From positions 992,001 through 1,056,000 of the forward strand of contig CAWFQB010000001.1 of the NCBI GenBank assembly GCA_963817895.1: 64,000 nucleotides of DNA, written 5' to 3'. The translations under genes and the position numbers were made by a program. Below are positions 5,294 to 58,859 of the stretch, piece by piece. The notes below the pieces were generated by a model. The model was not told the origin of the DNA. It did no database searches and worked only from the letters and a program-made list of their open reading frames with translations. The DNA comes from an uncultured Chthonomonadaceae bacterium (lineage in GTDB: Bacteria; Armatimonadota; Chthonomonadetes; Chthonomonadales; Chthonomonadaceae). Every line of letters begins with the position of its first letter. Within the stretch, counting starts at the first letter, position 1.

Positions 5294-6337
5294 ATGAATA
5301 TAATACGCGGTCTGCTGGGGCGATACTCCCGCGATATGGGCATTGACCTCGGCACCGCCAATACTCTGGTTCATGTGCGTGGACGAGGGATTTTGCTGCG
5401 CGAACCCTCTGTGGTCGCCATCGAAAAAGATAACCATTCCAAAGTGCTGGCGGTGGGCGAAGAGGCGAAACGGATGCTGGGGCGAACACCCGGCAACATT
5501 ATCGCCATTCGTCCGCTCCGCGACGGCGTGATTGCCGACTTCGAGCAGACCGAAGCCATGATTCGCCGCTTCATTGAAAAAGTGCATCGGCGCAACTATC
5601 TGATTGCGCCGCGCATCGTCGTCGGTGTGCCCTCCGGCGTTACGGAAGTGGAAGAGCGGGCTGTCACCGAAGCAACGCGCAAAGCGGGCGCAAAAGAGGC
5701 GTACACCATTGAAGAGCCGATGGCGGCCGCCATCGGCGCGGGCCTGCCTGTCTCGGAACCGACCGGCAGCATGATTGTGGACATCGGGGGCGGCACGACG
5801 GAAGTGGCGGTTATCTCGCTTGGAGGTATCGTCACGAGCCGTTCGATTCGCATTGCCGGGGATGAAATAGACGAGGCCATTGTTAATTACGTGCGCCGCA
5901 CCTATAATTTGTATATCGGCGACCGCACGGCGGAGCAGGCCAAATTCGAGGTTGGCTCCGCGTATCCTGTCGGCCCGGAACGCACAATGGACGTGCGCGG
6001 GCGCGACCTGATTTCCGGCCTGCCGCGCTGCACGACGATTACCAGCAGCGAAATCCGCGAAGCCATTCAAGACCCCATCAACAGCATCGTGGAGGCCGTG
6101 AAAGTGACGCTGGAGAGTACGCCGCCGGAACTGGCAGCCGACATTTACGAGCGCGGCATCGTCCTTGCCGGCGGCGGCGCACTGCTGGAGGGTCTGGATC
6201 ATCTGCTGTCGCGCGAAACCTCTATGCCCGTTCACATCGCGCCCGACCCGCTCTCCTGCGTGGTACTGGGAACCGGCAAAGTGCTGGAAGAGATTGATAC
6301 CAACGCGATGCTGCGTAAAGTGCTGAGAAGTAGGTAG
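5294..6337 (+). CDS. mreB: Rod shape-determining protein MreB
   Basis: [45 protein letters not shown]. Confidence 0.98.
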
Positions 6338-6342
6338 ACGCC

Positions 6343-7209
6343 ATGCGCCCACAACGAGCGCCACACGCCCGGCGGTATTGGGCGGCTCTGATATTTCTCA
6401 TGTCGGGAACCCTGGCGGGCGCGTGGCACAATCGCAGCGCGGATCAGGGCAGGCCGGACGTCGTCAGCGGCGCGGTCAGAACCGTGGTGGCTCCTCCGGC
6501 GCGGGGCGTGGGGAGTGTGTCGCGCTGGTTCAGCGATCAGACGGGCTGGCTGCTGCATGGCCGCGCCCTGAGCGCGGAAAACGAGAAACTGCGTCTGCGC
6601 GTGGCGGAACTGGAGGGGCAAAACGCCGAGTATGTGGAGGCGCAGCGCCAGAACGAGCAACTGCGGCAGGATTTGAAGTTTGTGCAAAGCCAGAAACACG
6701 AGTTACTCTCCGCCGATGTGATCGCGCGGCGTCCCGATCCCAATTTCGATACCATTCTGATTTCGCGCGGCAGCCGCGACGGGGTAAAGATCAACAGCAT
6801 TGCCCGGACGCGCAACGGATTAGTCGGCAAAGTTTCGGAAGTGTCTCTCACGACTGCCACCGTGATTTTGCTGACCGACCCGAACGGCGGCGTGGGCGCG
6901 CGGGCGCAGCGCGCGGCTTCCAACGCGATTGGCGTTTGTAAAGGCGACTACTCCCCCCTGATTCCCCTGCTCGATCTGGCCGGTGACGCCGACATCAAAC
7001 CCGGCGATGTGATTGTCACGTCCGGCTTCAGTACGGTTGCGCCGGGTGGAACCAAAACCAACCCCAATGTGCTGCAAACCTACCCCAAAGGCATTCCCAT
7101 CGGCACGGTTGTCAGCGTAAAAGGAGAAGAGGGCAGCGTCAGTAAAATCGCCACCATTCGTCCGGGCGTGGACTTCGACCGCCTTGAAACGGTATTCGTG
7201 CTGCCGTGA
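6343..7209 (+). CDS. mreC: Rod shape-determining protein MreC
   Basis: Follows mreB; N-terminal TM, coiled coil (ENEKLR), GLVGKV, GDVIVTSG, YPKGIPIGTV. Confidence 0.93.
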   Translation: MRPQRAPHARRYWAALIFLMSGTLAGAWHNRSADQGRPDVVSGAVRTVVAPPARGVGSVSRWFSDQTGWLLHGRALSAENEKLRLRVAELEGQNAEYVEAQRQNEQLRQDLKFVQSQKHELLSADVIARRPDPNFDTILISRGSRDGVKINSIARTRNGLVGKVSEVSLTTATVILLTDPNGGVGARAQRAASNAIGVCKGDYSPLIPLLDLAGDADIKPGDVIVTSGFSTVAPGGTKTNPNVLQTYPKGIPIGTVVSVKGEEGSVSKIATIRPGVDFDRLETVFVLP

Positions 7210-50545: not shown

Positions 50546-51842
50546 AAACAGGCAAAAGGTCGGCGTGAGCGTGAATGCAGGCGTGGAGGGCTTCCATCCC
50601 TGCGCGTTTGTCTACAATGGTCGGGTCGAGTTCGATGGCGTGATGCAATACGGGCAGACTTCGTTCCTTTGCGGCGCGAACAATGGCGTCGGTGACTGCA
50701 GCGGTTTGTCGGCAGAGTTCGGCAACGGGGGGCGGCAAGGCAATTGTTGCGGGGTGCAGGCCTTTTGCGTCGGCAGCGCAGGGGGTTTCCACAAACACGT
50801 TCCGGGGCAGATTGAGAATTTGCCCTGTGTTTATCAGGTTCAGGGAGTGCAATCGTTGCGGGCGTCCGTAAGCAAGCGCGGCAATCACATCGCCCGGACG
50901 CTCCCACGAGGGCTTTTGCAGCAAAGCGTCCCACGGTTGGCTGCCATCCGCAATGTCGCGCATCAGGTCAAGCCGCTGTTTGCGCTCGTCGGGAGAACCG
51001 TGACCGGGCGCGGATCGCGTCGCGTGGCCCTGTGGCGGCAGAAAATCTCGAATGTGGTCGTCACCCGGCATGGGCAGAAAGCCGGTTTCGCGGGCGATTT
51101 GTTCAGAACGAATTTGCCCGGTTCGGCTTGCGGACGCGCTTGCTTCCAATTCGCGGCGCAGAGTGGGCAATAAATCTTCACTCGTTTCGCAGTTTTGCAG
51201 TTCGCACAGCCACGAAAAATGATTGATGCCCGCCATTGTCGCTTTATATTTTTCCTGCGGTTCCGCAAACGGATACGAGGCCGAAACGCCGTCCAGCAGG
51301 CGCGAAATCATGCCGTAGCCCTGTATGCTGACGGAACAGAAACCGGCTGTTTTCACGCCCCGCTCATGCGCCGCCTGCGTGACGCGGGGCAAAGGGTTGG
51401 ACACGTTGAGCAGCCATGCGTCGGGACACAAGCGGCGCATATCGTCGGCAAGGCTTTCAATGAGCGCGATCTGGCGCAGCGAGTAACTGATTCCCGCAAT
51501 GCCGCCGAACTCCGTGACCAGATGGCCGGGTGAAAGGCGGTCAACAATCTCGCAGTCTATGGCGAACCGCTTCCACATTTGCGGCGCGGCACAGCAGATT
51601 ACGAAGTCGGCCCCGTCCAGAGCAGGTTCGCGGGCGGCATAGGCGGAAACGCGGGTATCCAGTCCCATCGTTTGCGCCATGCGTTTCGCCACGCCCGCCA
51701 TGCCGTTGCGCGCGTCCGTATCCGGGTCTACGAGCGCCAGTTCCAGACCGGGCAGGCGGTGATGCAGCAGGGTCTGCTCCAGCACACTCGGCCCAAACAC
51801 GAAACTCCCCGCCCCCACCACCGCCACTTTGCAGTTCGGCAT
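50538..51842 (-). CDS. Glycoside hydrolase family 4 (NAD+/Mn2+-dependent)
   Basis: VAVVGAGSFVFG, ALDGADFVI, CPDAWLLNVSNP, GFCSV, AGINHF, NLPRNVFVETP. Confidence 0.88.
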   Translation of the reverse strand: MPNCKVAVVGAGSFVFGPSVLEQTLLHHRLPGLELALVDPDTDARNGMAGVAKRMAQTMGLDTRVSAYAAREPALDGADFVICCAAPQMWKRFAIDCEIVDRLSPGHLVTEFGGIAGISYSLRQIALIESLADDMRRLCPDAWLLNVSNPLPRVTQAAHERGVKTAGFCSVSIQGYGMISRLLDGVSASYPFAEPQEKYKATMAGINHFSWLCELQNCETSEDLLPTLRRELEASASASRTGQIRSEQIARETGFLPMPGDDHIRDFLPPQGHATRSAPGHGSPDERKQRLDLMRDIADGSQPWDALLQKPSWERPGDVIAALAYGRPQRLHSLNLINTGQILNLPRNVFVETPCAADAKGLHPATIALPPPVAELCRQTAAVTDAIVRAAKERSLPVLHHAIELDPTIVDKRAGMEALHACIHAHADLLPVFV

Positions 51843-51880
51843 CGGCTACATCCCTTTCCATCGTTTTGGTATGCGTGGCT

Positions 51881-51908
51881 TTTCGCCATGAACGAAGCTA
51901 ATTCCTGC
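51881..51908 (-). promoter_or_regulatory. Sigma-H-like promoter for the GH4 operon
   Basis: Minus-strand GCAGGA-N18-GAAA, ~40 nt before the GH4 start. Confidence 0.5.
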
Positions 51909-52301
51909 CGATGATTCACATACCTGCTAGTCGGAACAGCGTGAGTGGGAAAGCAATATGTAGAGACGTCGTCGAAATAGTGGCAATGCAGCGCTTCCAG
52001 CACTCGGTCTCGTTACGTCAAGTTTTTATGTAGAGGCGTCGTGACCTCCGCATGGTTAAGGCGAACGGATGTGAACAGGCATCTTTTTGCACCTCCCTTC
52101 CTTGTTATTGGGGGACGTTATTTGGTTTTGGCAAGCAACCTACTATTAACATTGGGCGGCGTTTTTAGAAGGTGTAGAAATGGCTGGAATCCAATTTTGC
52201 TGAAAATATTTTCGTGGAGACTGTGGCAGCCGATTTTGTACACACATCAGCGCCTTGGAGTGTCCAAAGCCGCGTATCTGGTACTGGAATTGTAAATGCG
52301 G

Positions 52302-52329
52302 GCAGGAATTGCTAAAACGGAAAGCGAAA
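52302..52329 (+). promoter_or_regulatory. Sigma-H-like promoter for the SNF2 operon
   Basis: GCAGGA-N18-GAAA, ~90 nt before the GTG start. Confidence 0.45.
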
Positions 52330-52417
52330 ATAGTGTGAAGTGGCAGTCTTCATTGCTTTGCGCAACGATCAACAATATACAGCGGCTTTCCTACGCATAT
52401 TCAAAGTGAGGTAAATC

Positions 52418-55400
52418 GTGTCTTCAGAGGTTCCTGTTGAGTTTGTTACCGGGGAAGTTGTTTGTCTGCGCTCCGATGATGAGGTCAGTGGCGTCATCAC
52501 AAAGGTTTTGCCGGGTGTTCCTGAGAACCGCTATCAGGTGTTCCTGAACAACAAACAAGTTTTCTATTACGCCAGTCAATTACAGCGCAGTGTTCCGCAG
52601 GATAGGGCTTCCGCTATTCTGCCTCTTTCTACCTTTCAAGCGCACCTTTGCGCCCTTCAGATACGCCATCCTTCTCTTTCCACGCTGTACTCGCTACATG
52701 CCGCCCGCGTCAATTTTATTCCTTACCAGTTTCGCCCGGTGTTGAAATTTATCCATTCCGACCGACCGCGCCTGTTGATTGCGGATGAGGTAGGTGTCGG
52801 CAAAACCATCGAAGCGGGCCTGATTCTGCGCGAATTGCAGGCGCGGCGCGAGATCAATTCGGTACTGATTATCTGCCCGCGTTCTCTGGTGAAGGAACAT
52901 AAATGGCAAAAGGAATTGAAACGATTTGATGAGGAATTTGAGGAATTGGACGGCGGCAAACTGCGGTCATGCCTGAATGAATTAGATTTAGACGGAGAGT
53001 GGCCGCGCAACCGGCGCAAGTGCATCGTGCCGTTTTCCGTATTCGATGAGCGGCTTGTTTTTGGCAAGGAGGGGCGGCGTTCCCGCAGTCGGGAGGGGCT
53101 TGTCAATCTGGACACGCCGCCCCATTTCGATCTGGTGATTGTGGATGAAGCCCACCACCTGCGCAACAGCAACACCTATCTGCATCAGGGCGTGAAGTTT
53201 TTTTGCGACCATGCGGATGCCGTTGTTTTGCTCACCGCGACGCCGATTCAGCTTGGCGACAACGACCTGTATACCCTCCTGCATTTGCTGCGCCCCGATT
53301 TGATTCTGGATTCAACCAGTTATCAAACCATGTCCGCGCCCAATCCCCACATCAACCGGGCGGTGGAACGGGCGCGGGGCGGCGCGGAGTATTGGCAGGC
53401 GAACTGCCTTGCGGACTTGCAGCAGGCGGGACTTACGGAATGGGGACAACGGCTATTGTCGGGCCTGCCGGAGTTTCAGGGCGCGTGTCAGCAACTATCC
53501 GGGGCGGCGTTGAACCCGGAAGAGCGAATTGCCTGCATCCGCGCAATGGAAAATCTGCACACGTTTTCCCAATTGATAAACCGTACCCGCCGCCGCGACA
53601 TCGGCAATTTCACGACGCGCAAAGCGGAAACCGTGACCGTCAATTTCACGCTCGCGCAGGAACAGTTGCACAACGCGCTGCTGGCGGTTCAGGCGCGAAT
53701 TTTGAAACGGGCGCACAAGGTGGAAATGGCGCAGGCCGTGCAGTTTATGATGACAACTCTGCGGCGGCAGGCGGCAAGCTGCCTGTACGCGCTGGCCCCG
53801 CTTATCGAACAGATATTGACGCGCCGTTACGATCCCGCAAATGCCGACGCATGGGACACTGCCGATGAGGACGACAGCGATGCGGACGGCATGGAAAGCA
53901 TTGCGCCGGACGCCCTCGTTTCGCTGCAAGTGGAAATAGCGAACGTGCTGCAAATGGCGCGTGACCTTGACCCGTTCGACCCGAAATTGCAGGCGTTCCT
54001 CAGTCTGGTACGCGACAAACAGGAACTCGCCAACCGGAAAATTCTCGTATTCAGCACGTTTCGGCATACGCTGAATTATCTGGTGACGCATCTGCTGCGA
54101 GCCAACATTCGCGTCGGACTGGTGCATGGCGGCATTTCGGATGACGAGCGTTCCGACCTGCGCAGGCGGTTTGAACTGGAAGCGAACGACTCGCAGGCCA
54201 TTGACGTGCTGCTGTCTTCGGAAGTGGGCTGCGAGGGATTGGATTACCAGTTTTGCGACTGCCTGATGAACTACGACCTGCCGTGGAACCCGATGCGCGT
54301 GGAACAGCGAATCGGGCGCATTGACCGCTACGGACAGAAAAGCGAAACTGTTTCCATTCATAATTTGGTGACGCCGGGTACGGTAGACTTTGATATTTAC
54401 GAGCGTTGTTTGTGGCGTATCGGCGTGTTTCAGCAGGCGTTGGGCGGCAGTGAAGAGATATTAGGACGGCTGACGCGGGAATTGAAAGCAGTTGCGGAGA
54501 ATCTGGAACTGACCGAAGAAGAGCGGCAGGAACGCCTGGATCAGCTTGCCGACAACGAAATCCGGCTGGTACAGGAACAGGACGCGCTGGAAGCGCAGCA
54601 GGCGGAATTGTTCGGCAACGCGCTGCCGCTAAAGCAGTTCGAGCAGGATGTGAAGGACGCCACAAGCGCGTGGCTGTCCCCGTCCGCGCTGCAAAACCTG
54701 ATCGAGCATTATCTGTCCGAAACGTGCGGCGGCGAGGGGCATATTCTGGGCGCAAAGGCGTTGAAAACCCTGCGGCTCAATCAGGACGCGCGTAATCGGC
54801 TGTTGCAGGACTTCAACAAATTGCCTCCCGCCAAATCCTCCACGCGCCGGGATTGGGAACTCTGGCTGAAAGGTGACGAGCCGCATCTGGCGATTACCTT
54901 TGAGTCGGCCTGCGCGGGCGATAACCGGGCGGCAACCTTTATGACGCCCGTTCATCCCCTCGCGCAGCAGGCGGCGCGGTTGTTTACGGATGTGCCGCCG
55001 TTTCGGACGGCCTGCCGCGTGACAGATGAGGACATTCCGCCGGGAACCTACCCGTTCGCCATTTACCAGTGGCAAAAGCGCGGTATTCGGGATGATGTCG
55101 AATTTCAGCCGGTGTGCGCGAATAAACTGTTGAACGAGCGTTTCCTGACGCTGCTGGAAACCGCGCAGACGGCGGATGGTTCGCCTTCCGACTTTCCCGC
55201 CGCAACGGAATTCGACGCGCTGGATCAGCAGCACTATCCGCTCTGGTCACAGGCGCGGGCAAAGCATCAGGAATTGACGCGGCGCATTGTCGAGCAGAGA
55301 GGGGAAAGCCTTCGCGCCAGCCATAGGGCGCGAATGGCGCAATTGCAGGATCAGCGTGACAACAACACAAACGAAAAAATACGACTGATGCGCGGTTCGG

Positions 55401-55525
55401 AAATCCGCGCCGCCGCCGCCGACTTCGACCGCCGCATAGCCGAAATCAACGCCGCCGAAGGCCGCGCCGACTTGACGGCAACACAGGTAGCCATTGGAAT
55501 ACTAATCGTGGAGGCAAAACAATGA
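52418..55525 (+). CDS. SNF2-family (RapA/DrmD-like) helicase
   Basis: LIADEVGVGKT, VDEAHH, LTATP, SEVGCEGLD, YDLPWNPMRVEQRIGRIDR. Confidence 0.93.
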   Translation: MSSEVPVEFVTGEVVCLRSDDEVSGVITKVLPGVPENRYQVFLNNKQVFYYASQLQRSVPQDRASAILPLSTFQAHLCALQIRHPSLSTLYSLHAARVNFIPYQFRPVLKFIHSDRPRLLIADEVGVGKTIEAGLILRELQARREINSVLIICPRSLVKEHKWQKELKRFDEEFEELDGGKLRSCLNELDLDGEWPRNRRKCIVPFSVFDERLVFGKEGRRSRSREGLVNLDTPPHFDLVIVDEAHHLRNSNTYLHQGVKFFCDHADAVVLLTATPIQLGDNDLYTLLHLLRPDLILDSTSYQTMSAPNPHINRAVERARGGAEYWQANCLADLQQAGLTEWGQRLLSGLPEFQGACQQLSGAALNPEERIACIRAMENLHTFSQLINRTRRRDIGNFTTRKAETVTVNFTLAQEQLHNALLAVQARILKRAHKVEMAQAVQFMMTTLRRQAASCLYALAPLIEQILTRRYDPANADAWDTADEDDSDADGMESIAPDALVSLQVEIANVLQMARDLDPFDPKLQAFLSLVRDKQELANRKILVFSTFRHTLNYLVTHLLRANIRVGLVHGGISDDERSDLRRRFELEANDSQAIDVLLSSEVGCEGLDYQFCDCLMNYDLPWNPMRVEQRIGRIDRYGQKSETVSIHNLVTPGTVDFDIYERCLWRIGVFQQALGGSEEILGRLTRELKAVAENLELTEEERQERLDQLADNEIRLVQEQDALEAQQAELFGNALPLKQFEQDVKDATSAWLSPSALQNLIEHYLSETCGGEGHILGAKALKTLRLNQDARNRLLQDFNKLPPAKSSTRRDWELWLKGDEPHLAITFESACAGDNRAATFMTPVHPLAQQAARLFTDVPPFRTACRVTDEDIPPGTYPFAIYQWQKRGIRDDVEFQPVCANKLLNERFLTLLETAQTADGSPSDFPAATEFDALDQQHYPLWSQARAKHQELTRRIVEQRGESLRASHRARMAQLQDQRDNNTNEKIRLMRGSEIRAAAADFDRRIAEINAAEGRADLTATQVAIGILIVEAKQ

Positions 55526-58500
55526 CCGACTGGTTTGATGAACTGCATGACAAGCGTAAGCGACTGGTTTCTACACTGGAGGAAAACAATACTGACCTGA
55601 GAATGTTGCTCGAAGACAAATACGCCGACCCGGTTCACTTCGTCTACGAACTGCTGCAAAATGCGGAAGATCAAAAGGCAAAACACGTCGAGTTTTTGTT
55701 GACGCCGGACCGTCTGTTGTTTAAGCATTATGGCGACACGTTCAAGCAGCGCGATGTAGACAGCATTACCAACGTCGGCAACTCCTCCAAGCAGGGACAA
55801 GTCAACAAAATAGGCTGTTTCGGCATCGGCTTCAAGTCCGTGTTCGACGTCACAAGCAGACCTCGAATCTACTCCACACTTGACGAAGAACCTTTTGCGT
55901 TTGCAATCGAAGAAAAGTTTGTGCCGGTACGCTTGTCTTGTCCCAAAGAACTGCTGGAACCGAACGAGACGCGCTTTGAATTTCCGTTCAAGCAAGGTCA
56001 GGAAGCGGAAATTTTCAGCAAAGTTTGGAAAAAACTGCGTGAACTTGGGCCGGACACCCTGTTGTTTCTGGATCATATCGAAGAAATTAAATGGCGTACC
56101 ACAACGGAAGAAGGCATTTACTTGTGTGAACGCGCCGATCCTGTAAGCGGCAAGGTTCAATTGGTATGGGAAGCAGGGCCACGGGATACAAGTAAGGAAA
56201 CGCAGTACATGCAGTTTCTTCGCTACTCCAAAATTGCGCCTATCAAGCGCGGCGACAGCGATTTGAAAGTTAGTATTGCCTTTCGGCTTGAAAACGATCA
56301 GATTGTCTCAGAGCCGGGTCTTTCCGTTCTGAACGTCTTCTTTCCAACAAGCGAAAAGACGGGACTAAAATTTCGCTTACATGCCCCTATGCTTCTAACG
56401 GACAGCCGCGCCAACATTCGTCCTGATGATCCCACCAACCGCCAGCTAGTGCGAACATGCGCTGAACTGCTGGCGGAAAGCCTGCCGAAATTGCGTGATG
56501 CAGACATGTTGACAGCCACCTGCCTTAATTGTCTGCCGATACGAGAAGAAGATTTCCCCGAACAAACTGTCTTCCGTCCACTATATGATGCAGTTCTCAA
56601 GGCATTGGCAACGCAAAAACTGCTGCCAACAGCCCGCGAAAGCTCGTGTAAGTATGTGGATGCTGTTCATGCCCGCCTCACCGAATCCAAGCCTCTACGC
56701 GCGTTTATGTCCGAGAAGCAATTGATGGAACTAGAAGATAGCGATATGCCTGTCTGCTGGCTGCCGGAAAACATTGGTAACGATACGACAAGAGATTTAT
56801 GGGTTTATCTCACAAAGCAACTTCACATTGAGACGCTCGACGGCGAAAAATTGGCGCGAAAAATCAGTGAACGCTTCCTGCAAAAACAGCCCGATGATTG
56901 GATTACGTCCTTTTATCATTTTCTTTCGACCTCACCCTATCTTTGGGACAAGAACAGGTACTCTCCACTTCGCAGTAAACCTATCATTCGATTGCAGAAT
57001 GATCAGCATGTCATACCTTTTGACAGACAGGGAAGTCCAAATGCTTTTCTGCCTACGGGCAGCAACTCGGCGCTGGATACGGTGAAAACAAGTGTCTGCG
57101 AGGATGAGAAAGCGCGCAAATTCCTTGTAGATTTAGGCCTCACTCTGCCTGATACGACTGATGAAGTAATACGGCTGATACTGCCTGCCTACAGGCAGTC
57201 ACCGTTACCTCCGTACTCTGTCTCAGAGTACAATTTGCAGCTTACCACTATTGCTACGGCAATTGAAAACTGCAAGCCTGATGAGAGTGACGAGTTACGC
57301 AGCCAACTGCTGCAAACGCCTTTTCTGCGCGTTTGCAATGCTGTTAATTCAAGCACCTGTAAATGGGTGGAGCCTGATAAACTGTACCTGCGCTCGACGG
57401 AGTTGATAAAGTGGTTTGAGGGCAATGGGGAGGCATGGTTCGCCAGTTCAACTGTGACAAAGCATCCGGGTTGGCCCTGTATCTTCAAGTTTCTGAATAC
57501 GCGCCGTAGACCTTCGTTCGGGACGGAGGAAGACGCCGTCGTCACTGACACAGTCGTATTTCGTACCGCATCTAAAGGCAAACATGGATTCGTCCACTTA
57601 TATTCTTCACATGGCTGGCATAGAAGGGGCATCAACGGCTTTGATCCCAGTTCTCAGATAGAAGGTCTTGAATTCGCGCTGTCGCACATAACCAAAGACC
57701 GCGCTTATATCCTCTGGAAACTGCTCTCAAAAGAAGCCTATTTAGTGCAGGGCTGTGTTGAAGAAGCCACTCGCCAAGATTACATCAAAAGTGACTACTC
57801 AATTGAGTTTTCCGTTGTCGGACAACTTTGCCGTAAGCACCCCTGGCTGCCGGACAGAACAGGCAATTACTTCAAGCCAGAAAACATTGCTCTTTCAGAT
57901 TTGTCCGACGACTTCGATTATATGTCTGAGACAGCCATTCAACTGGCAGAAAAACTCGGCATGAAGCAAATCGTTAAAACACAGGAACAACTGCAAGCCG
58001 AAGAACTGCACCTCACTGTAGACATTGTGGAGTACATCAAAAACAATCCTGAACTGATTGCTCAATTTGTGCGCAGCAAGCAATCACCAGTCACATCTTC
58101 ACAGTTTCCGGTGGATGAGGATGTTACGTTCTCTGAACGCAGAGCCGTCAAAGTTCAGGAGGAAGCGCGTAACAATCCAGAAGTAAGGCGAGAGCAGCGA
58201 CTACGTACTGTACGCCTGTGTTCGCCGGAATACAAAGCAGAGGCAAAGCCTTACCTTCAAAGCCACTATAAAGACGATTGGGGAACGATGTTTTGTCAGA
58301 TTTGCGAACTGCCAATGCCGTTTAAACTTCCCAATGGAGAGTCATACTTCGAGATAGTTCAGTACGTGAAGGGTCTGCCTAATGAAAGTCAGCGTCACTA
58401 CTTGGCGTTGTGTCCCCTCTGCGCGGCGAAATACCTTTATGCCAACGGCAACGACGCCGAATCTTTGCAACATGCGGCGGTTCATGCCGATTTACAAACC

Positions 58501-58632
58501 GACTCCCTTACCATACCTGTTGAACTCGCAGGCGACCACTGTACAATTCGCTTTCGCCAAAAACATTTGGGCGACCTCAAAAATACGTTGATTGGCATGT
58601 TACAGCCTGCCGGTGATAGTGAAGAAGAGTAG
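55522..58632 (+). CDS. Sacsin-like GHKL ATPase-domain protein with C-terminal HNH-like Zn-binding domain
   Basis: YELLQNAED (N box), IGCFGIGFKSVF (G box), FFPT...FRLHAP...SRANI; tail CQIC...YFE...LALCPLC; ATGA overlap with the helicase. Confidence 0.85.
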   Translation: MTDWFDELHDKRKRLVSTLEENNTDLRMLLEDKYADPVHFVYELLQNAEDQKAKHVEFLLTPDRLLFKHYGDTFKQRDVDSITNVGNSSKQGQVNKIGCFGIGFKSVFDVTSRPRIYSTLDEEPFAFAIEEKFVPVRLSCPKELLEPNETRFEFPFKQGQEAEIFSKVWKKLRELGPDTLLFLDHIEEIKWRTTTEEGIYLCERADPVSGKVQLVWEAGPRDTSKETQYMQFLRYSKIAPIKRGDSDLKVSIAFRLENDQIVSEPGLSVLNVFFPTSEKTGLKFRLHAPMLLTDSRANIRPDDPTNRQLVRTCAELLAESLPKLRDADMLTATCLNCLPIREEDFPEQTVFRPLYDAVLKALATQKLLPTARESSCKYVDAVHARLTESKPLRAFMSEKQLMELEDSDMPVCWLPENIGNDTTRDLWVYLTKQLHIETLDGEKLARKISERFLQKQPDDWITSFYHFLSTSPYLWDKNRYSPLRSKPIIRLQNDQHVIPFDRQGSPNAFLPTGSNSALDTVKTSVCEDEKARKFLVDLGLTLPDTTDEVIRLILPAYRQSPLPPYSVSEYNLQLTTIATAIENCKPDESDELRSQLLQTPFLRVCNAVNSSTCKWVEPDKLYLRSTELIKWFEGNGEAWFASSTVTKHPGWPCIFKFLNTRRRPSFGTEEDAVVTDTVVFRTASKGKHGFVHLYSSHGWHRRGINGFDPSSQIEGLEFALSHITKDRAYILWKLLSKEAYLVQGCVEEATRQDYIKSDYSIEFSVVGQLCRKHPWLPDRTGNYFKPENIALSDLSDDFDYMSETAIQLAEKLGMKQIVKTQEQLQAEELHLTVDIVEYIKNNPELIAQFVRSKQSPVTSSQFPVDEDVTFSERRAVKVQEEARNNPEVRREQRLRTVRLCSPEYKAEAKPYLQSHYKDDWGTMFCQICELPMPFKLPNGESYFEIVQYVKGLPNESQRHYLALCPLCAAKYLYANGNDAESLQHAAVHADLQTDSLTIPVELAGDHCTIRFRQKHLGDLKNTLIGMLQPAGDSEEE

Positions 58633-58645
58633 TTCTCAACATGGA

Positions 58646-58851
58646 AGTTTCTACCCTCATCCGGCCTCCGGCCACCTTCTCCCTGCAAGGGAGAAGGCTA
58701 AATTATTGGATTGGCACGTTGGCGATGAGCTTTGTTTTGGCGTATAGATTTTTCATTGTTGGCGCTGTCTTTTATTCAGCCGCCCATTGAACACGTTCGC
58801 CTTCTCCCTTGTAGGGAGAAGGTGGCCGGAGGCCGGATGAGGGTAGAAACT
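58646..58851. repeat. 53-bp inverted repeat element (CCCTCATCCGGCC..GGCCACCTTCTCCC..GGGAGAAGG family)
   Basis: Arms 58646-58698 and 58799-58851 are reverse complements with one mismatch. Confidence 0.85.
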
Positions 58852-58859
58852 CCCAAACA

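Follow-up and report, generated by a model that had tools for sequence, protein, structure and literature searches.

A conserved, mobile gene pair encoding a SNF2 ATPase and a Tiamat-like GHKL ATPase, likely acting in defence, with in-place replacement of the Tiamat-like gene

A stretch of 64,000 nucleotides from an uncultured Chthonomonadaceae bacterium (contig CAWFQB010000001.1, positions 992,001 to 1,056,000; hereafter the window) was analysed, in which two overlapping open reading frames (ORFs) encode a SNF2 ATPase and a Tiamat-like GHKL ATPase. The SNF2 gene (ORF1, 52418..55525, + strand) encodes a RapA/DrmD/BrxHII-like SNF2 ATPase of 1035 amino acids (aa) without an N-terminal HEPN or other added domain, and the Tiamat-like gene (ORF2, 55522..58632, + strand) encodes a protein of 1036 aa consisting of a GHKL ATPase with an HNH-like tail. 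The genes share four bases (ATGA), and an identical 4-base overlap between SNF2 and partner was found in 35 of the 66 paired genome loci described below. The GC content of ORF1 (57.1%) is genome-like, versus 48.3% in ORF2, which places the latter within the lowest 1.6% among the genome's 550 ORFs of at least 600 aa. The pair is flanked upstream by GH36 and GH4 glycosidase genes and downstream by CbiM/CbiQ. Two ORFs of about 1035 aa overlapping by ATGA, a more AT-rich second gene and unrelated neighbours had been reported in a preliminary description of this DNA, and all three points were borne out.

ORF1 contains the Pfam domains SNF2-rel (residues 118-450) and Helicase_C (523-639), its nearest solved structure is RapA (1.5e-53), and it was matched by the PADLOC DrmD profile (E 4.5e-112) and, far under the curated cut-off of 610 bits, by the NCBIfam DrmD profile (304 bits). 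No HEPN remnant was found upstream of ORF1 or elsewhere in the genome. The nuclease-free SNF2 of the window is under purifying selection, with ratios of nonsynonymous to synonymous substitution rates (dN/dS) of 0.11 and 0.20 against two congeners.

The first part of ORF2 (residues 1-345, 55522..56556, + strand) is a sacsin/Hsp90-type GHKL ATPase with a transducer (E43, N47, D50, GxG box at 98-105, R296), in which Pfam places SACS at 26-118 and whose structural model matched Hsp90/TRAP1 (E 4e-10). Of 184 aligned relatives, 183 have the N-box glutamate E43, and G98, G101, G103, K105 and R296 are each present in all 184; the dN/dS of this part is about 0.08, a value calculated from saturated dS. 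The ATPase sites of both the SNF2 and the GHKL protein are intact. The following middle (residues 346-860, 56557..58101, + strand) evolves fast, mean identity to relatives being 15-21% over residues 401-900 versus 37-43% in the first 200 residues, and is likely a sensor. No DUF3684-type middle was matched in ORF2 by Pfam, though the PADLOC TmtA profile (4.1e-59) spans residues 20-791.

The tail of ORF2 (residues 861-1036, 58102..58632, + strand) has an McrA-type HNH fold that retains four Zn ligands and lacks the catalytic histidines, and it carries H1015-x-x-D1018 in its last helix. Its model (predicted local distance difference test score, pLDDT, 90) was matched by Foldseek to EcoKMcrA (E 4.5e-4) and superposed on VIA TagI (Z 6.9, root-mean-square deviation 3.3, 97 residues aligned), and a profile match to 6ghc was obtained (1.3e-7). 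CQIC and CPLC Zn ligands with replaced HNH histidines had already been noted at this tail (CQIC at 925-928, YFEIVQ at 942-947, CPLCAAK at 964-970), and alignment with EcoKMcrA, in which YLEVHH corresponds to YFEIVQ and CPNCHRELH to CPLCAAKYL of ORF2, agrees with that observation. The active-site positions of an McrA-type HNH nuclease are occupied by V946, Q947, A968 and L972, and histidine was found at these four positions in 0, 1, 0 and 5 of 176 tails, respectively; the HNH finger histidines are lost family-wide. Conserved instead are H1015 (175 of the 176 tails, and 146 of 147 further tails picked with the same profile), position 1018 (D/E in 172 of 176, D in 143 of 147) and E944 (163 of 176 and 145 of 147), while E947 occurs in 95 of 176 and 122 of 147, and the glutamine found at 947 in the window is shared with 62 of the 176. 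The family is a large one: at E 1e-30 or better, the tail profile collected 685 clusters (50% identity). The profile gave no match among GenBank phages, a comparison of the tail with an HNH_2 neighbour gave no alignment, and an atlas lookup returned unnamed clusters, then HNH. Five proteins (P0046, P0054, P0058-P0060) share 38-40% identity with ORF2 as far as about residue 860 and end in NOV_C, so that tails, HNH-like or NOV_C, appear from these sequences to have been exchanged among close relatives of ORF2.

The pair is conserved and mobile, and its two genes travel together. Among 79 genome loci, obtained from the best 80 of 571 confirmed ORF2 matches by score, a SNF2 gene 37-60% identical to ORF1 lies directly upstream in 66, distributed over 14 named phyla. 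The 13 unpaired loci comprise two without upstream DNA, three NOV_C-tailed true Tiamats, six behind type III restriction-modification (R-M) genes, one behind another RapA-like SNF2 and one without any SNF2. In the six type III R-M loci (L060, L063, L077, L081, L087, L095), an operon in the order HTH-SNF2, (Abi_C), type III Mod, Res is followed by the HNH-tailed gene, the SNF2 there being a more distant relative located further upstream. In the reverse direction, 60 metagenome loci were found with the SNF2 alignment, 19 of which score above 1100 bits; the partner is present in 15 of 15 of these close loci with downstream DNA, the other four ending at the gene, and in none of the 41 SNF2 loci that are more distant. 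Of 301 genomes of the window's phylum, 8 match the C-terminal part of the SNF2, a patchy distribution, and the partner is present in 6 of 6 testable others. Copies of the pair were also found on three plasmids and on 6 of 14 viral contigs. No conserved third gene was found around the pair among the loci, and this SNF2 was absent from the NOV_C-tailed relatives with neighbourhoods seen, a set outside which the five closest NOV_C-tailed proteins fall. The neighbourhoods of the homologs support the first proposal, that two genes form a stand-alone module whose HNH tail is degenerate.

The N-terminus of the SNF2 is an optional slot, a feature newly recognised here together with the purifying selection on a nuclease-free copy. 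Among 72 pairs it holds a Swt1-like HEPN domain in 40 (of 11 N-terminal extensions tested, 10 matched Pfam, and the HEPN motif RNxxAH is present in 34 of 35 genome copies), nothing in 18, a sigma-linked helix in 13 and another extension in one. HEPN changed at least 4 to 6 times on the tree, the HEPN-less copies do not form one clade (p-AU 2e-65), and HEPN-less pairs recur in several phyla. The fusion ORF of L042, taken as a probable assembly error, was excluded from the trees. In the sigma-linked form, the SNF2 opens with a conserved, roughly 60-aa helix, perhaps an anti-sigma domain, and a weakly ECF-sigma-like gene of about 180 aa directly precedes the SNF2 gene. The sigma-linked loci (L031, L032, L033, L034, L035, L038, L040, L041, L045, L050, L054, L062 at ~6200-6770, and L116) form one clade, and this form is also likely present on the L178 plasmid. 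Further N-terminal extensions without a Pfam match occur at L025:6221-6964, for which no atlas match was obtained, and L107:3549-4088. The window copy is the minimal form with no recognisable nuclease; since the HEPN slot is optional and the window SNF2 lacks any HEPN remnant yet is under selection, the core of the module consists of the two ATPases.

The Tiamat-like gene has been replaced in place in a congener (G002) and apparently also in a second strain (run X4), which is likewise newly recognised here. G002 has the same gene order at the same site as the window; its DNA is 84% identical through the SNF2 gene, and this identity ends at 55547 and resumes at the inverted repeat downstream of ORF2. 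The SNF2 proteins are 88% identical and the ORF2 pieces 34-53%, compared with 69-72% ORF2 identity in five other pairs with 87-88% SNF2 identity. Decay as an explanation of the frameshifts in G002 was rejected, as three of four housekeeping neighbours are likewise frameshifted. In run X4, a contig of 4478 nucleotides (nt) follows the SNF2 gene up to 55544 (77 differences over 1241) and apparently carries another ORF2 allele; joints of equal depth reach just the N-box stretch, then the repeat. A possible empty site in this run (joint from 52171 to 58642) was not used, because both repeats also adjoin on contig C2. The HEPN RNase on about half of the relatives' SNF2s and this in-place exchange had both been overlooked in the preliminary description.

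The right border of the swapped segment is a dispersed inverted repeat (REP-like pair, 58642..58855), of which 45 arm copies in 26 clusters were found in the genome. A terminal inverted repeat had been described and does exist at this position, but, being dispersed, it does not belong to the module, and it was rejected as a cassette end; an Rfam match to a plant miRNA (82 bits versus 230) was judged a hairpin artefact. A second dispersed repeat (51951..52171, about 150-220 nt) lies upstream and is not specific to the module either, with 46 other copies in the genome, one of which directly adjoins the REP-like repeat on contig C2. An upstream promoter motif of the pair's own was not confirmed, a scan of 51800-52500 for sigma-70-type promoters finding none at threshold (1.0 expected by chance); the DNA from 52290 onward is conserved in G002.

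Around other copies, the commonest neighbour is a RecD-like helicase of about 1200 aa, found on either side in eight loci (L025, L026, L053, L068, L071, L099, L102, L103). An RtcB RNA ligase gene directly precedes a HEPN-less pair in two Poribacteria loci (L069:5317-6872, L090:4791-6245). The genome of the window itself has a second Tiamat-like locus (L022:5572-14518; G000:C4, ~97.5-106.5 kb), in which a SNF2 with a NOV_C tail is followed by a sacsin-type gene in two frames that ends in a NucS-like domain, and a similar locus, L023, continues with a DUF1156 methylase.

The pair likely serves in defence against phages or plasmids, because its presence is patchy, its alleles are replaced, HEPN is fused to its SNF2, its neighbourhoods are rich in defence genes and ORF2 is akin to Tiamat. 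As to the mechanism, the reading tentatively preferred, with slightly less than even confidence, has ORF2 acting as a clamp that combines an exchangeable middle for sensing with a pseudo-HNH tail and that activates the SNF2, the HEPN-less motor then blocking the phage. McrA-type HNH domains dimerise, and the GHKL clamp would be held together by the pseudo-HNH tail through dimerisation or DNA binding; the variable middle would capture a protein of the phage or a DNA structure, and the clamp, closing under the drive of ATP, would load or switch on the SNF2 on DNA. ORF2 is thus predicted to be an exchangeable sensor and the SNF2 motor the executor, the output being set at the SNF2 N-terminus by the HEPN RNase, by the short helical domain beside the ECF-sigma-like gene, or by nothing. 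In the window form, the motor would, once activated, be enough to halt replication or transcription of the phage, with no cutting. A middle acting as a fast-evolving sensor was also proposed by Yuan et al. (bioRxiv 10.64898/2026.09.30.754977), in whose available text the experiments concern B. cereus Tiamat only, none being on Type IV, and Tiamat defence is stated to require its ATPase glutamate.

Several observations weigh against this reading or limit what speaks for it. The output of the HEPN-less form is a guess, because residues specific to HEPN-less copies include nothing active-site-like and no pointer to an effector. The genome loci, chosen by score, are not a random sample. In favour of the pair, the two gene trees largely agree across 72 pairs (Mantel r 0.79, with ORF2 evolving ~1.7 times faster), but neighbouring genes transferred as one would show this in any case; the HNH-like tail also occurs without this SNF2 clade in seven genome loci and one viral contig. 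Also in favour of the reading, a defence-type neighbour was counted in 37 of 60 paired loci of at least 12 kb, and a defence or mobile-element gene in 42, by a hand tally of Pfam matches covering 185 hand-picked of 398 neighbours scanned, with some generous labels and without a control; against it, no defence or mobile neighbour was seen in the remaining 18 loci, and the window's own neighbours are metabolic genes. A predicted complex of SNF2 1-828 with tail 860-1030 scored 0.06 (mark 0.32) and was used neither way.

A rather unlikely alternative, although the best of the rivals, is that the tail still works as a nuclease through a putative rebuilt site (E944, E/Q947, H1015, D1018); the SNF2 would feed it DNA, as in the nick-and-unwind model proposed for Tiamat, and HEPN would be only a back-up. 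The near-invariance of H1015, D/E1018 and E944 across the 176 and 147 tails fits such a site, which would also explain the persistence of the 32 of 72 pairs without HEPN, and the text of Yuan et al. leaves the activity open, citing PacI. The positions of the McrA motifs YLEVHH and CPNCHRELH are, however, almost devoid of histidine, as counted above, position 947 is glutamine in the window and in 62 of 176 tails, and E944, which McrA has as well, may be structural. Improbable is an auxiliary role, in which the HEPN-less pair would need an effector (an R-M system or other nuclease) supplied in trans, or a slow decay of the HEPN system: type III R-M genes precede the ORF2 family in six loci, R-M or RecD-like genes adjoin it in others, the genome has the second SNF2-NOV_C and Tiamat-like locus on contig C4, and an effector in trans is suggested in the text of Yuan et al., but the low dN/dS of the SNF2 (0.11-0.20) and of the ATPase part (~0.08, with saturated dS), the intact motifs and the recurrence of HEPN-less pairs in several phyla without a shared third gene argue against it. 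A non-defence role in DNA repair, RapA-like transcription recycling or mobile-element upkeep, to which RapA as nearest solved structure of ORF1, the resemblance of a GHKL clamp plus helicase to MutL-UvrD (Yuan et al.) and copies among housekeeping genes, on plasmids and on viral contigs might point, is the least probable of all: against it stand the patchy distribution (8 of 301), the replacement of alleles, the fusion of a HEPN RNase, neighbourhoods rich in defence genes and kinship with Tiamat.

Beyond the preferred clamp-and-motor reading, it is possible, though on the unlikely side, that the pair represents a plug-and-play immune chassis, in which a GHKL clamp, exchanged between strains as a whole gene, would set sensing and the conserved SNF2 would carry an optional output (HEPN RNase, ECF sigma factor release, or none). 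Its minimal form would be two ATPases with no classical nuclease, stopping phages by motor-driven blockade or by a His-Asp-Glu site rebuilt on an HNH fold that lacks histidines. The targets of the Tiamat clamp and its coupling to helicases are stated as open in the available text of Yuan et al., and the pair, with two genes and no methylase, offers a minimal test of clamp-helicase coupling. With natural sensor alleles on nearly one motor (in the window, in G002 and in run X4) and three output states occurring in nature, it can be tested whether the middle region determines the range of phages and whether an HNH fold devoid of histidines can cut.

Among known systems, DISARM class I comprises drmMI, drmA, drmB and drmC together with DrmD, and in Zorya type I ZorD is accompanied by ZorAB. 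ORF1 falls under the DrmD cut-off (304 versus 610 bits) with no drmMI, drmA, drmB or drmC adjacent, and its ZorD match reached 28.9 bits against a cut-off of 1500, with unrelated flanks. The tail of ORF2 shares the fold and Zn site of the EcoKMcrA/TagI HNH domains but lacks their catalytic and metal-binding histidines and has an extra invariant HxxD. ORF1 has the same overall RapA-like SNF2 build as the helicases BrxHII, Hma (BR) and DrmD, as that build is described in the part of PMC12839542 available, but has no C-terminal REase; a methylase and DUF499/BrxC ATPase, which accompany the helicase in BREX type 3/BR (Hma), are missing beside it, as is PglZ. The initial view that the locus is no DISARM or Zorya system holds by profile cut-offs, flanks and the lack of a conserved third gene, and it is no BREX system either. 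The models of PADLOC-DB 2.0 match the two genes separately only, as TmtA and DrmD.

In the literature searched, no paper naming or testing the pair was found besides that of Yuan et al., whose figures or supplements may show it; it is not described in the available parts of PMC3710099 and PMC8195603. Among the nearest known systems is Tiamat itself (TmtA, Bacillus cereus), whose ATPase and middle are homologous to ORF2, E43 matching its catalytic E44. Tiamat, however, ends in a C-terminal PD-(D/E)xK NOV_C/DUF3883 nuclease, whereas ORF2 has no NOV_C match and an HNH-like tail, and Tiamat is described, as far as the available text goes, as stand-alone, in contrast to the nearly fixed SNF2 partner of ORF2. 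In the same text of Yuan et al., no bacterial HEPN fusion, sigma-linked form or allele replacement is mentioned; Type IV-A is defined as Tiamat-like, of 900 aa or more, with an HNH-like fold without catalytic residues, and the Type IV-B neighbourhood as having a helicase partner fused to a nuclease domain, neither the helicase family nor the nuclease being named. The earlier statement that the pair matches no named system is weakened accordingly. With its 1036 aa and histidine-less HNH-like tail, ORF2 fits the Tiamat-like Type IV-A as that text presents it. The adjacent helicase of Type IV-B is shared by the pair (66 of 79 loci), while the nuclease fusion is absent from the window SNF2 and HEPN is carried by 40 of 72 relatives; failing the nuclease-fusion feature, the pair nonetheless probably works like Type IV-B and belongs beside it.

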